Translations under genes and position numbers: made by a program | Notes under the pieces: generated by a model | What the model was told of the DNA's origin: nothing | Seen by the model: only the letters and a program-made list of their open reading frames with translations | Database searches by the model: none | Shown here: positions 8,853 to 56,988 of the stretch, piece after piece | Position numbering within the stretch: position 1 is the first letter of the stretch | Layout of the letters: each line of letters opens with the position of its first letter | DNA from: Escherichia coli | Lineage (GTDB): Bacteria > Pseudomonadota > Gammaproteobacteria > Enterobacterales > Enterobacteriaceae | Length of the DNA stretch: 64,000 nucleotides | Direction: 5' to 3' (one strand) | Assembly (NCBI RefSeq): GCF_013315695.1 | Contig: NZ_CP054353.1

Positions 8853-8891
8853 CAGTGCTCTGGTAGCTGTAAAGCCAGGGGCGGTAGCGTG
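8853..8891 (+). promoter_or_regulatory. JUMPStart element with ops site (GGCGGTAGCGTG) for RfaH-dependent antitermination
   Basis: cagtgctctggtagctgtaaagccaggggcggtagcgtg about 75 bp upstream of rmlB; ops 12-mer at 8880..8891. Confidence 0.8.
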
Positions 8892-30242: not shown

Positions 30243-30279
30243 AATAAAAAAGCCCCCGGAAGGTGATCTTCCGGGGGCT
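30243..30279 (-). terminator. his operon attenuator terminator
   Basis: agcccccggaag..cttccgggggct hairpin followed on the minus strand by a U-run, between hisL and hisG. Confidence 0.85.
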
Positions 30280-30342
30280 TTCTCATGCGTTCATGCACCA
30301 CTGGAAGATCTGAATGTCTTCCAGCACACATCGCCTGAAAGA

Positions 30343-30393
30343 CTAGTCAGGATGATGGTGATGATGGTGGTGTTTAAATTGAACGCGTGTCAT
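30343..30393 (-). CDS. hisL: his operon leader peptide (MTRVQFKHHHHHHHPD)
   Basis: 16-codon minus-strand ORF with seven consecutive His codons upstream of the attenuator hairpin. Confidence 0.9.
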   Translation of the reverse strand: MTRVQFKHHHHHHHPD

Positions 30394-33060: not shown

Positions 33061-33326
33061 AGAAAAATTATTATGACAAGCCTCTCATTCTCTTGTCATT
33101 TCCCCCCCATTTAGGCACAATGCGCCGCTGTCAAAAAATGACTAAAAACCGACGTTTAATTAGCGTCGGTTATTTTTTGCTTCAAACCAATCATTCATAC
33201 CAAGAGGCCGGGCTTCGTACCGGATAGATATTTACTAAAAATCGACAGTTGTTGTCGCTGAGGAATCCAAAAAAATGGGGCAATTTTTTGCTTACGCGAC
33301 GGTTATCACCGTAAAGGAGAATGACC

Positions 33327-37835: not shown

Positions 37836-39008
37836 TTGCTGTTGAAACGCCGTCTTATTATTGCTGCTTCTTTGTTCGTTTTTAATTTATCGTCTGGTTT
37901 TGCGGCGGAAAACATTCCTTTTTCACCTCAACCTCCAGAGATTCATGCCGGGTCCTGGGTATTGATGGATTACACCACCGGTCAGATTCTCACCGCGGGT
38001 AATGAGCATCAACAGCGCAATCCCGCCAGCCTGACAAAGCTGATGACGGGCTATGTCGTGGATCGCGCTATCGATAGTCATCGCATTACGCCAGACGATA
38101 TTGTCACCGTGGGGCGTGATGCGTGGGCGAAAGATAATCCGGTGTTTGTCGGTTCTTCACTGATGTTTTTGAAAGAGGGCGATCGCGTATCGGTACGTGA
38201 TTTAAGCCGTGGTTTAATTGTGGATTCCGGAAATGACGCTTGTGTTGCACTGGCTGACTATATTGCCGGTGGGCAACGGCAGTTTGTTGAAATGATGAAC
38301 AACTATGCCGAGAAGCTGCATCTCAAGGATACGCATTTTGAAACAGTGCATGGTCTGGATGCACCTGGCCAGCATAGCTCGGCTTATGATTTAGCTGTGC
38401 TTTCTCGCGCTATCATCCACGGCGAGCCCGAGTTTTATCATATGTACAGTGAGAAAAGCCTCACCTGGAACGGTATCACCCAGCAAAACCGTAACGGGTT
38501 ATTGTGGGATAAAACCATGAATGTTGACGGCCTGAAAACGGGTCATACTTCTGGTGCCGGGTTTAATCTCATTGCTTCGGCTGTAGATGGGCAGCGTCGT
38601 CTCATTGCAGTGGTAATGGGGGCTGACAGCGCAAAAGGTCGTGAGGAAGAGGCAAGAAAATTACTGCGTTGGGGTCAACAAAACTTTACTACGGTGCAAA
38701 TTTTGCACCGTGGGAAAAAGGTTGGTACGGAACGCATCTGGTATGGCGATAAAGAAAATATCGCCCTGGGAACGGAACAAGAGTTCTGGATGGTGCTACC
38801 GAAAGCCGAAATTCCACATATCAAAGCCAAATATACCCTTGATGGTAAAGAACTCACCGCGCCAATTAGCGCCCATCAGCGGGTAGGGGAAATTGAACTT
38901 TACGACCGTGATAAACAGGTGGCGCACTGGCCGCTGGTTACCCTGGAATCTGTCGGGGAAGGCAGCATGTTTTCCCGGCTGAGTGATTATTTCCACCATA
39001 AGGACTGA
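37836..39008 (+). CDS. dacD: D-alanyl-D-alanine carboxypeptidase (PBP6b)
   Basis: 390-aa ORF with TTG start; signal peptide; SLTK (SxxK) active-site motif. Confidence 0.9.
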   Translation: MLLKRRLIIAASLFVFNLSSGFAAENIPFSPQPPEIHAGSWVLMDYTTGQILTAGNEHQQRNPASLTKLMTGYVVDRAIDSHRITPDDIVTVGRDAWAKDNPVFVGSSLMFLKEGDRVSVRDLSRGLIVDSGNDACVALADYIAGGQRQFVEMMNNYAEKLHLKDTHFETVHGLDAPGQHSSAYDLAVLSRAIIHGEPEFYHMYSEKSLTWNGITQQNRNGLLWDKTMNVDGLKTGHTSGAGFNLIASAVDGQRRLIAVVMGADSAKGREEEARKLLRWGQQNFTTVQILHRGKKVGTERIWYGDKENIALGTEQEFWMVLPKAEIPHIKAKYTLDGKELTAPISAHQRVGEIELYDRDKQVAHWPLVTLESVGEGSMFSRLSDYFHHKD

Positions 39009-39092
39009 CCTTTCTTTTGCAGCAGACTGGCAGGAGTGCGAGTCTGCTCGCATAATCAACACTCATTCCTTGTGGTTTTAATATTGCAACTA

Positions 39093-39106
39093 TACTGTAT
39101 ATAAAA
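39093..39106 (+). promoter_or_regulatory. left half of a split LexA box (TACTGT + spacer ATATAAAA) with the overlapping candidate sbmC promoter -10 TATACT
   Basis: Joined to 40992..41005 it reconstitutes TACTGTATATAAAAACAGTA (CTGT-N8-ACAG). Confidence 0.7.
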
Positions 39107-39205
39107 GGGTCTTCCCCTGTTGTGGTGGGTGGTACATAATTGAGTGATTTTCAAACACCACACAGTACCTTTATGGTGTCTCTTTTTACATGAGAGGGAA
39201 TTCTT

Positions 39206-39724
39206 ATGAGTGTGCCGCAAACAAAAGCTGAACTGCTTTTAGCTATTGATAAAAATTTTAGTAAATTAATTAGTTACCTCAACACAATCCCACCAGAAAT
39301 TACTTCAGATAAATCAATGGACGGACACGCCAAAGGAACGGAGATGAGTGTTCGTGATCTCGTTTCGTATCTGCTTGGATGGAATGCTCTTGTTGTAAAG
39401 TGGATCGCTTCTGATGCTAAAGGTCTGCCTGTCGATTTTCCGGAAACTGGCTATAAATGGAATCAGCTTGGCCTTCTTGCTCAAAAATTTTACTCAGATT
39501 ACAGTGAGTTAAGTTATGAGTTGTTAGTAGCTGAACTTCAGACTGTAAAAAATGAGATTGTGAACCTTATTAATGATCGTACCGATGATATTTTGTATGG
39601 AAGACCATGGTACACAAAATGGACGATGGGGAGAATGATCTCATTTAACACATCTTCGCCTTACGCCAACGCTAATGGAAGATTAAGAAAGTGGGCAAAA
39701 AATAATAATATCAGTTTAAAGTAA
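39206..39724 (+). CDS. ClbS/DfsB-like (DUF1706) protein, putative colibactin/DNA-damage self-protection protein; passenger gene of the ISL3 element
   Basis: 172-aa ORF with good RBS (gagaggga); shares with remembered ClbS the motifs HAKGT, VSYLxGW, LGxLAQKFY, YGxPWYxKWTxGRMIxFNTxSPYxNAxGRL. Confidence 0.6.
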   Translation: MSVPQTKAELLLAIDKNFSKLISYLNTIPPEITSDKSMDGHAKGTEMSVRDLVSYLLGWNALVVKWIASDAKGLPVDFPETGYKWNQLGLLAQKFYSDYSELSYELLVAELQTVKNEIVNLINDRTDDILYGRPWYTKWTMGRMISFNTSSPYANANGRLRKWAKNNNISLK

Positions 39725-39742
39725 GCTTCAGAATGAAATTAT

Positions 39743-40963
39743 ATGGACGAAAAATCCCTCTATGCCCATATCCTTAACCTGACTGCACCATGGCAGGTTA
39801 AATCCCTTACCCTCGATGAAAATGCAGGTTCCGTTACTGTTACAGTCGGAATTGCTGAAAATACTCAGTTAACCTGTCCGACCTGCAGGAAATCCTGTTC
39901 TGTTCACGATCACCGACATCGTAAATGGCGCCACCTTGATACCTGCCAGTTCATGACATTAGTAGAAGCCGATGTTCCCCGCGTTATGTGCCCGGAGCAT
40001 GGCTGCCAGACTCTGCCTGTACCGTGGGCAGGTTCCGGCAGTCGGTACACTCTGCTGTTCGAATCGTTCGTGCTCTCATGGCTTAAAATCAGCACCGTTG
40101 ATGCGGTCAGAAAACAACTTAAACTTAGCTGGAATGCCGTTGACGGCATCATGACCCGCGCGGTTAAGCGAGGCCTGTCGCGGATTAAAAAGCCTTTATC
40201 AGTGCGTCATATGAATGTAGACGAAGTCGCCTTTAAAAAAGGGCATAGGTATATAACCGTGGTATCTGATCGCGACGGGCGGGCACTGGCATTAACCGAT
40301 GATCGTGGCACAGAGAGTCTTGCCAGCTATCTCCGTTCGCTTACTGACAGTCAGTTGTTGGCCATCAAAACACTGTCGATGGACATGAATGCGGGCTATA
40401 TAAGAGCAGCGCGTATCCATTTACCCAATGCGGTCGAGAAAATCGCCTTCGATCGCTTCCATGTGGCGAAGCAACTGGGCGAAGTGGTTGATAAAACCCG
40501 CCAGAATGAACATCCGCACCTCCCTGTTGAAAGTCGTCGTCAGGCCAAAGGTACCCGCTTCCTGTGGCAGTACAGCGACAAATGGATGACTGAGTCCCGG
40601 CAGGAAAAGCTGATGTGGTTGCGGGAACAGATGCAACAGACAAGCCAGTGCTGGACACTGAAAGAGCTGGCAAAAAATATCTGGGATCGCCCCTGGAGCA
40701 CAGAACGCAGGAATGACTGGTTGCAGTGGATATCGCTGGCGTCTGAATGTGATGTGCCGATGATGAAAAACGCAGCGAAAACCATTAAAAAACGGTTATA
40801 CGGAATACTGAATGCAATGCGTCATCGCGTCTCGAATGGAAATGCGGAGGCGCTGAACAGCAAGATCAGACTGCTGAGGATAAAGGCCAGGGGATACCGA
40901 AACCGGGAACGCTTTAAACTGGGAGTTATGTTCCACTATGGGAAACTGAATATGGCGTACTGA
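39743..40963 (+). CDS. ISL3-family transposase
   Basis: 406-aa ORF; N-terminal Cys-rich zf-ISL3-like region ([14 protein letters not shown]) followed by a DDE_Tnp_ISL3-like domain; stop codon abuts the right inverted repeat. Confidence 0.85.
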
Positions 40964-40991
40964 GTCTTCCCACCATGATCGGGGAAGACCC

Positions 40992-41005
40992 ATATAAAAA
41001 CAGTA
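40992..41005 (+). promoter_or_regulatory. right half of the split LexA box (duplicated spacer ATATAAAA + ACAGTA) upstream of sbmC
   Basis: Sits 15 bp upstream of the sbmC ATG; see 39093..39106. Confidence 0.7.
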
Positions 41006-41019
41006 TTAATGGGGGCGTC

Positions 41020-41493
41020 ATGAACTACGAGATTAAGCAGGAAGATAAACGTACCGTTGCAGGTTTCCATCTCGTTGGCCCGTGGGAACAGACGGTAAAG
41101 AAAGGCTTTGAGCAGTTGATGATGTGGATAGATAGCAAAAATATTGTGCCGAAGGAGTGGGTTGCTGTCTATTACGACAATCCAGATGAAACACCCGCCG
41201 AAAAATTACGCTGCGACACCGTCGTGACGGTGCCGAATAACTTTACGCTCCCCGAAAACAGTGAGGGCGTCATTCTGACAGAAATTTCAGGTGGTCAGTA
41301 TGCGGTGGCGGTGGCTCGTGTAGTCGGTGATGATTTTGCTAAACCCTGGTATCAGTTCTTTAATAGCCTCTTGCAGGACAGTGCCTATGAAATGTTACCA
41401 AAGCCCTGCTTCGAGGTTTACTTGAACAATGGCGCGGAAGATGGGTACTGGGATATCGAAATGTATGTTGCGGTGCAGCCAAAACATCACTAA
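41020..41493 (+). CDS. sbmC: DNA gyrase inhibitor SbmC (GyrI)
   Basis: ORF 40975..41493; ATG at 41020 gives [24 protein letters not shown] (157 aa). Confidence 0.92.
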
Positions 41494-46496: not shown

Positions 46497-47747
<1,251 letters not shown>

Positions 47748-52679: not shown

Positions 52680-52755
52680 TGGCTCCTCTGACTGGACTCG
52701 AACCAGTGACATACGGATTAACAGTCCGCCGTTCTACCGACTGAACTACAGAGGA
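52680..52755 (-). tRNA. asnV: tRNA-Asn (GUU)
   Basis: 76-nt reverse complement of TCCTCTGTAGTTCAGTCGGTAGAACGGCGGACTGTTAATCCGTATGTCACTGGTTCGAGTCCAGTCAGAGGAGCCA; anticodon loop CUGUUAA; symbol by K-12 synteny. Confidence 0.95.
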
Positions 52756-55088: not shown

Positions 55089-55164
55089 TGGCTCCTCTGA
55101 CTGGACTCGAACCAGTGACATACGGATTAACAGTCCGCCGTTCTACCGACTGAACTACAGAGGA
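55089..55164 (-). tRNA. asnU: tRNA-Asn (GUU)
   Basis: Identical 76-nt tRNA-Asn sequence on the minus strand. Confidence 0.95.
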
Positions 55165-56912: not shown

Positions 56913-56988
56913 TCCTCTGTAGTTCAGTCGGTAGAACGGCGGACTGTTAATCCGTATGTCACTGGTTCGAGTCCAGTCAGAGGAGCCA
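56913..56988 (+). tRNA. asnW: tRNA-Asn (GUU)
   Basis: TCCTCTGTAGTTCAGTCGGTAGAACGGCGGACTGTTAATCCGTATGTCACTGGTTCGAGTCCAGTCAGAGGAGCCA on the plus strand. Confidence 0.95.

Follow-up and report, generated by a model that had tools for sequence, protein, structure and literature searches.

What placed an insertion sequence exactly between the two half-sites of a repressor operator, and is its position an accident or the outcome of a rule? This question is raised by a stretch of 64,000 nucleotides of Escherichia coli DNA (contig NZ_CP054353.1; hereafter, the window), in which a complete copy of ISEc53, an ISL3-family element carrying a ClbS-like passenger gene, lies in the LexA operator of sbmC (gyrI), the gene for a DNA gyrase inhibitor. 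We compared this locus with other copies of the element, with its relatives and with published LexA boxes. The results make it highly probable that ISEc53 normally targets LexA operators, its transposase reading the half-sites, and that the insertion at sbmC would let this gene escape SOS control by promoter read-through.

ISEc53 splits the LexA operator of sbmC

The element spans positions 39107 to 40991 and is 1885 bp long. A first-pass annotation, made from the letters alone, had delimited an ISL3-family unit with these two ends, an 8-bp target-site duplication and one passenger open reading frame besides the transposase, and its description agrees with ours base for base. The terminal inverted repeats are GGGTCTTCCCCTGTTGTGGTGGG on the left and CCCACCATGATCGGGGAAGACCC on the right; read as its reverse complement, GGGTCTTCCCCGATCATGGTGGG, the right end agrees with the left at 19 of 23 positions, the first 11 perfectly. 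The 8 bp ATATAAAA stand on both sides of the element and only once in the empty site, as expected of a duplicated target. Deletion of the unit together with one copy of the repeat gives TACTGTATATAAAAACAGTA, located 14 bp upstream of the sbmC start codon (41020). The reconstructed junction reads ...AACTATACTGTATATAAAAACAGTATTAATGGGGGCGTCATG, and its ATG is that start codon.

We then compared a 601-bp reconstruction of the empty site with 5426 complete E. coli genomes. The query was contiguous at 100% identity in at least 21 of them, and in 5128, where the two flanking genes are annotated as dacD and sbmC, 80% or more of its length matched contiguously; the contiguous E. coli empty site that the first-pass annotation had proposed to look for is thus common. 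Because the empty sites hold CTGT and ACAG contiguously, these two motifs are part of the target, and the idea that they belong to the element was rejected.

The identity of the target was examined using the LexA boxes of E. coli K-12, 18 of which have been tabulated; in that list one and the same 20-mer, TACTGTATATAAAAACAGTA, is given for sbmC and for umuD (PMC3009722, Table 4). The reconstructed sequence is therefore the published sbmC box, as the first-pass annotation had supposed, and sbmC is described in the literature as SOS-induced. In a weight matrix built from the 18 published boxes, the reconstruction scored 27.2 bits, second highest among them, and it fits the consensus TACTG(TA)5CAGTA. 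Only one of the approximately 62,000 20-mers in the window reached the score of the weakest published box, namely the sbmC box itself. By chance, about 75 CTGT-N8-ACAG sites are expected per 5-Mb genome and about one in the window, and a scan of the window for such sites besides the sbmC box found none.

ISEc53 and its relatives insert at LexA boxes

The NCBI annotation pipeline gives the name ISEc53 to the unit, which is identical to that element over all 1885 bp. Full-length copies at 99% identity or more were present in 656 of the 5426 complete genomes, on chromosomes as well as plasmids. The copies elsewhere have the same two ends and differing flanks, each with its own 8-bp duplication, so that the recurrence with the same ends and cargo for which the first-pass annotation had proposed to search was found.

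The flanks of ISEc53 were drawn from 50 metagenome contigs, viral contigs, three species-representative genomes, public assemblies and complete genomes, and the pooled set comprised ISEc53 and ISKox3 as well as relatives with protein identities as low as 64%. CTGT occupied positions -12 to -9, exactly 8 bp from the element tip, in 66 of 72 distinct left flanks (binomial P ~1e-151). Among the 37 sites verified by their duplication, a perfect CTGT-N8-ACAG was found in 28 and CTG-N10-CAG in 33, and the spacer was 88% A+T across insertion sites. A degenerate scan for the left inverted repeat in viral contigs contributed a further 34 distinct flanks, and CTGT was present in 32; the scan of one genome per species yielded only three loci, too few to judge host range. 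Base frequencies at each position were nearly equal in insertion sites and LexA boxes, including the flanking T and A, and 23 of 28 insertion sites equalled or exceeded the score of the weakest among the 18 published boxes.

The genes next to these sites tell the same story. ISEc53 was found at umuD in IAI39 and another strain (TACTGT TTTTATAT ACAGTA), at dinD in both orientations, at symE, in a site between dinI and umuDC, in the sbmC box in reverse orientation, in Mu-like and lambdoid prophages, and in a plasmid operon with DinI-like, S24-peptidase and Y-family-polymerase genes, the last being by far the commonest site in gut metagenomes. ISKox3 stood beside an SOS gene in all eight copies sampled at even steps down the BLAST ranking (tisB/istR, umuD, sbmC twice, dinD in both orientations and two plasmid umuD-like operons). 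A Yersinia relative (73% protein identity) occupied CTGT-N8-ACAG in 4 of 4 copies, one of them upstream of dinI, and the Sodalis element ISSoEn4 (71%) lay upstream of uvrD. For a Providencia relative (64%) we found one perfect site and one half-palindrome. The site between entD and ybdK is putatively the hokE box, judged by the published sequence of that box; a search of the right flank for a hokE open reading frame found none. The dinD and istR2/tisB boxes tabulated in PMC3009722 are also among the sequences split by ISEc53 or ISKox3. Judged by the sites that they occupy, ISEc53, ISKox3 and their relatives insert almost only into LexA binding sites, and because of this the location at the sbmC operator is not due to chance. 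In a more distant Achromobacter relative (transposase 46% identical; L098-L100), CTG[TG]-N8 was present in 2 of 3 left flanks, the right end and the duplication being undefined; these flanks hint that the target rule may reach beyond Enterobacterales.

The sbmC box itself is a recurrent target. Among the complete genomes, it was occupied by ISEc53 in the orientation of the window in 79, giving the same dacD-ISEc53-sbmC junction (including Nissle 1917 and ATCC 25922), by ISKox3 in the same orientation in 81, and by ISEc53 in the opposite orientation in 27 (including IAI39 and CE10). These counts fit the approximately 290 genomes without a contiguous empty site, and they represent at least three independent insertions into the same 8 bp. 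Both orientations, at sbmC as at dinD, are expected because the target is palindromic.

Several observations were made on individual copies. ISKox3 on the plasmids L085 (pGSH8M-2-4, 46 kb) and L109 (pCFSAN061762) sits in a box upstream of S24-peptidase/umuD-like operons; L085 also has an IS26 beside a short (118-aa) S24-peptidase gene, an arrangement that presumably resembles the one described for IncX3 carbapenemase plasmids. The ISSoEn4 copy of Sodalis pierantonius SOPE (L101, upstream of uvrD) is 1712 bp long with near-perfect long inverted repeats and has an additional 98-aa open reading frame on the opposite strand, which makes it a second passenger-bearing member of the clade. In several copies, from metagenome contigs (L008, L015, L037, L042), viral contigs (L125, L141) and NZ_OZ546911.1 (L104), the two flanks derive from different LexA boxes and show no matching duplication, which implies recombination between copies at different SOS loci, with inversions or deletions between operators as the outcome. 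The copy L104 lies between dinD and a PerC-family gene.

Organization of ISEc53 and its passenger gene

The features of the locus are collected in Table 1. The transposase matched the ISL3 model NF033550 with 328 bits against a cut-off of 180, in line with the family named by the first-pass annotation. Its Pfam domains are Zn_ribbon_ISL3, HTH_Tnp_ISL3 and DDE_Tnp_ISL3 (PF01610, PF13542, PF14690), with no additional module.

Table 1. Positions of features at the dacD-sbmC locus and of RNA matches in the window
Feature	Position	Strand	Basis
dacD, left neighbour	37836..39008	+	open reading frame; matching stretch annotated dacD in complete genomes
Putative sbmC -10 element CTATACT, sigma-S/sigma-70 type	39090..39096	+	reading of sequence
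Left half of split sbmC LexA operator, TACTGT	39093..39098		sequence; intact box in PMC3009722 Table 4
Target-site duplication, left copy ATATAAAA (operator N8 spacer)	39099..39106		sequence and empty site
Alternative -10 candidate TATAAA, left flank, pointing into element	39100-39105		reading of sequence
Complete ISEc53 copy, 1885 bp	39107..40991	+	
Left terminal inverted repeat	39107..39129	+	read from sequence; element positions 1-25 also in ISKox3
Cargo module, 611 bp (element positions 26-636)	39132..39742	+	not in ISKox3, which has a 42-nt leader there
Passenger gene, ClbS/DfsB family (DUF1706), 172 aa	39206..39724	+	Pfam PF08020
ISL3-family DDE transposase, 406 aa	39743..40963	+	NF033550 and Pfam
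Right terminal inverted repeat	40969..40991	-	read from sequence
Target-site duplication, right copy ATATAAAA	40992..40999		sequence
Right half of split sbmC LexA operator, ACAGTA	41000..41005		sequence; intact box in PMC3009722 Table 4
sbmC (gyrI), DNA gyrase inhibitor	41020..41493	+	NF007451, 302 bits, residues 1-157
JUMPstart element, histidine operon leader, sRNA STnc240, sRNA isrC, three tRNA genes (identical scores)	8853-8891, 30244-30367, 33106-33180, 47556-47678, 52683-52755, 55092-55164, 56913-56985		Rfam

We aligned ISEc53 by blastn with ISKox3 and with the Yersinia relative. ISKox3 (again a name of the NCBI pipeline; ISL3 family, 1316 bp) is homologous to ISEc53 at positions 1-25, the left inverted repeat, and at positions 637-1885, a stretch that runs from the start codon of the transposase gene through the right inverted repeat and has a nucleotide identity of 84.5%. 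Positions 26-636 are unique to ISEc53 in the comparison with ISKox3. On this alignment ISEc53 is an ISKox3-type backbone with a 611-bp clbS-like module in place of a 42-nt leader. The two elements share the tips of their inverted repeats, the 8-bp duplication, the CTGT-N8-ACAG targets and the exact position in the sbmC box, and they differ in that ISKox3 has no passenger gene.

The single passenger encodes a 172-aa protein that matched PF08020 with E = 3e-54 over profile positions 1-166 of 166; a scan of it against NCBIfam matched no model. It is 100% identical to PDB 5COF, deposited as 'uncharacterized protein'. It shares the DUF1706 fold family with ClbS, the colibactin self-protection protein (PDB 6ANR), with which it aligns over residues 1-165 (E = 1e-55). 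It is nevertheless a family member distinct from ClbS, the one represented by 5COF. ClbS is a cyclopropane hydrolase with Tyr55 as its catalytic residue, and the counterpart of this residue is present in the passenger (aligned Y55, motif LVSYL). The activity of the clbS-like protein against colibactin is still to be shown experimentally (bioRxiv 10.1101/2025.11.17.686825).

The insertion has placed this ClbS-family gene (39206-39724) directly upstream of the GyrI-like sbmC (41020-41493), and the two are likely co-transcribed. Other GyrI-like proteins are reported to hydrolyse cyclopropanoid DNA alkylators (PMC5684135). Given the targeting rule, the adjacency of a ClbS-like and a GyrI-like gene is probably a coincidence. 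An Rfam scan of the whole window matched only features that are ordinary for this chromosomal region (Table 1). Conserved chromosomal genes (yeeO, amn, shiA) occupy the part from 52 to 64 kb, which matches strain MSB1_4I at 100% identity.

Predicted consequences for sbmC regulation

The two junctions read CTGT-N8-GGGT and ACCC-N8-ACAG, so that no intact operator is left. LexA binds as a dimer that needs both half-sites; because only half-sites remain, LexA should no longer bind at sbmC. A putative -10 element of sbmC, CTATACT, overlaps the half-site on the left of the split operator. Both this element and the alternative candidate TATAAA lie on the left flank and point into ISEc53. Induction of sbmC in stationary phase has been reported, with an alternative sigma factor suspected, and CTATACT as an element of the sigma-S type would be consistent with that.

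The clbS-like gene, the transposase gene and sbmC are co-directional, with 18 bp between the first two. A scan of 38900-41200 predicted no + strand terminator in the interval from the stop codon of the transposase gene to sbmC, and inspection of the right end of the element by eye revealed nothing convincing as an outward-facing or hybrid promoter. As a result of the insertion, sbmC is now 1.9 kb from its own promoter. We propose that the core of this promoter, kept on the left flank, would transcribe the clbS-like gene, then the transposase gene and then sbmC by read-through, likely as a single LexA-independent transcript, and that sbmC and the cargo would both escape SOS control. In the opposite orientation, as in IAI39 and CE10, sbmC would instead be severed from its promoter.

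How the target is chosen

In the reading that we favour, ISEc53 transposed into the sbmC LexA operator by cuts staggered by 8 bp at CTGT/N8/ACAG, which duplicated the whole spacer and left one half-site at each junction. That the duplication is exactly the operator spacer places the cuts at the CTGT/N8 and N8/ACAG boundaries. As their normal target, ISEc53, ISKox3 and the relatives from Yersinia, Sodalis and Providencia choose CTGT-(A+T-rich N8)-ACAG, which is the gamma-proteobacterial SOS box, and most likely the transposase in the synaptic complex reads both half-sites symmetrically and directly. The palindromic hot spots of other DDE elements offer an analogy for such symmetric reading.

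Three other explanations were weighed against direct reading by the transposase. Coincidence, whereby an ordinary ISL3 element that favours A+T-rich 8-mers only loosely happened to land in one operator spacer, can be regarded as refuted. The spacer is indeed pure A+T, and 8 bp is the duplication size usually given for ISL3 elements, but CTGT recurs at the same offset in 66 of the 72 independent flanks, only about 75 CTGT-N8-ACAG sites would be available by chance in 5 Mb, and the same 8 bp at sbmC were hit at least three separate times. It is also very improbable that insertion is random or A+T-biased and that selection then retains only those insertions which derepress an SOS gene or place the cargo behind an SOS promoter. 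Derepressed umuDC, sbmC or cargo could plausibly be advantageous, and only surviving insertions are observable. However, the register is base-exact, with the duplication equal to the N8 spacer in 28 to 33 of the 37 sites, and selection cannot fix a register; moreover, the same boxes are hit in both orientations, the cargo-less ISKox3 shows an equal pattern, and the pattern extends to prophage and plasmid sites beside unrelated genes.

A role of LexA itself deserves more attention, though we consider it unlikely: the transposase might be recruited by operator-bound LexA, or act on the operator just after LexA cleavage, which would tie transposition to the SOS state. Guidance by LexA would account for insertion-site base frequencies that are almost those of real LexA boxes, down to the flanking T and A, and for the fact that most occupied sites are genuine SOS-gene operators. 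The preference for T over G at the fourth half-site position is not significantly unlike that of LexA boxes (P = 0.059), and this test, which asks whether the element is stricter than LexA, decides for neither direct reading nor guidance. Three observations speak weakly against guidance. Insertions occur at sequences that lack CTG/CAG (fimB GATGG..ACAC, L076 and the Providencia CTGT..TCAT), and LexA should not bind where this core is missing; the transposase has just the three standard ISL3 domains; and a bound LexA dimer is known to cover the positions to be cut. A broader form of the idea, which we offer tentatively and hold to be rather unlikely, is that the LexA operator serves the enterobacterial ISL3 clade (ISEc53, ISKox3, ISSoEn4 and relatives) as a dedicated landing pad to which access depends on the SOS state. 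If so, the operator would be vacated upon LexA cleavage or marked by bound LexA, DNA damage would trigger transposition, and every insertion would take a promoter out of the SOS regulon for good; inserted in one of the two orientations, the element would also capture a de-repressed SOS promoter for its transposase and, in the case of ISEc53, for a genotoxin-resistance gene.

Several points weigh against targeting by direct reading, with escape of sbmC by read-through, as we propose it. Target choice is deduced from insertions that survive in genomes, and direct reading is not separable from recruitment by LexA, because all sampled hosts share the LexA motif. The main site that is not a LexA box is fimB in ST131-type genomes, GATGG-N8-ACAC (L051, L062, L065, L066, L102, L105). 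It reads GATGG ATATATAT, element, TATATACAC, and its flanks do not form a clean duplication of 8 bp. Compared with the recombinant copies L015 and L042, which have ATATATATACAC, it lacks 3 nt on the right, perhaps lost by slippage within the run of TA or through a small deletion. In L076 (GCA_052770305.1), ISEc53 occupies a G+C-rich site unlike a LexA box, with a clean 8-bp duplication, CGATAAGC, upstream of a pspF-type sigma-54 activator gene and pspA; this is the sole clear off-target among the 37 verified sites. The half-palindrome CTGT..TCAT in Providencia also deviates from the full target. As for read-through, a promoter and terminator consensus scan of 38900-41200 found no strong sigma-70 promoter at the sbmC box or inside the element, and because of this the capture of the promoter rests on our reading of CTATACT or TATAAA. 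Finally, ISfinder and subscription journals lay outside our literature search, and an earlier description or a curator's note is possible there.

Earlier descriptions and implications

ISEc53, its cargo and its insertion at sbmC are already in public databases. A 'clbS-like transposon' and its spread have been reported, in which a clbS-like gene stands beside a single ISL3 transposase on plasmids and chromosomes (bioRxiv 10.1101/2025.11.17.686825), and the disruption of fimB in ST131 has been ascribed to ISEc53 (bioRxiv 10.1101/2022.05.07.487787). Neither of these two reports mentions sbmC, LexA boxes or a target preference. Other literature naming ISEc53 consists of population-genomic or resistance surveys; in those consulted, the element is no more than an entry in a list of genes or the insertion in fimB. 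A search of about 8 million full texts found no paper joining ISKox3 and LexA, and literature searches found nothing linking sbmC with Nissle, or ISL3 elements with LexA boxes or target choice. Within the open full-text literature, LexA-operator-specific targeting by the ISEc53/ISKox3 clade thus appears to be undescribed so far.

Because the landing site is a LexA operator, each insertion by the clade removes one promoter from the SOS regulon, which governs the mutagenic polymerase V (umuDC), toxins (tisB, symE), the gyrase inhibitor (sbmC) and plasmid error-prone polymerases. Insertion sequences that target LexA operators would constitute a natural and recurrent rewiring of this regulon. Those affected include E. 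coli of clinical and industrial importance, namely Nissle 1917 (a probiotic), ATCC 25922 (a reference strain), IAI39 and CE10, as well as plasmids with S24-peptidase/umuD-like operons. Where strains serve as references in SOS or quinolone tests, their regulation of sbmC may be altered. Targeting would also explain why ISKox3 and ISEc53 are so frequently annotated beside umuD, dinD, sbmC and tisB. Since LexA-controlled genes occur on plasmids and prophages, vehicles that move between cells never lack a target. Scans for LexA boxes will overlook operators that have been split in this way. As a DDE enzyme whose target is a 16-bp palindrome, the transposase may lend itself to study or engineering.

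Comparison with known elements

ISPpu12 and other ISL3 elements likewise hold extra open reading frames besides an ISL3 transposase within their inverted repeats, with cargo unlike that of ISEc53, and we know of no operator-specific targeting by them. The closest parallels in target choice come from elsewhere. IS1397, ISKpn1 and others insert in REP palindromes (PMC1525189), and these elements, the palindromic hot spots of IS30 and the attTn7 site of Tn7 have in common with the ISEc53 clade a short, conserved, often palindromic and mostly intergenic landing site, which limits gene damage. Unlike in IS1397/ISKpn1, IS30 and Tn7, the landing site of the ISEc53 clade is the operator of a global repressor, and its targets are found also on plasmids and prophages with SOS-controlled genes.

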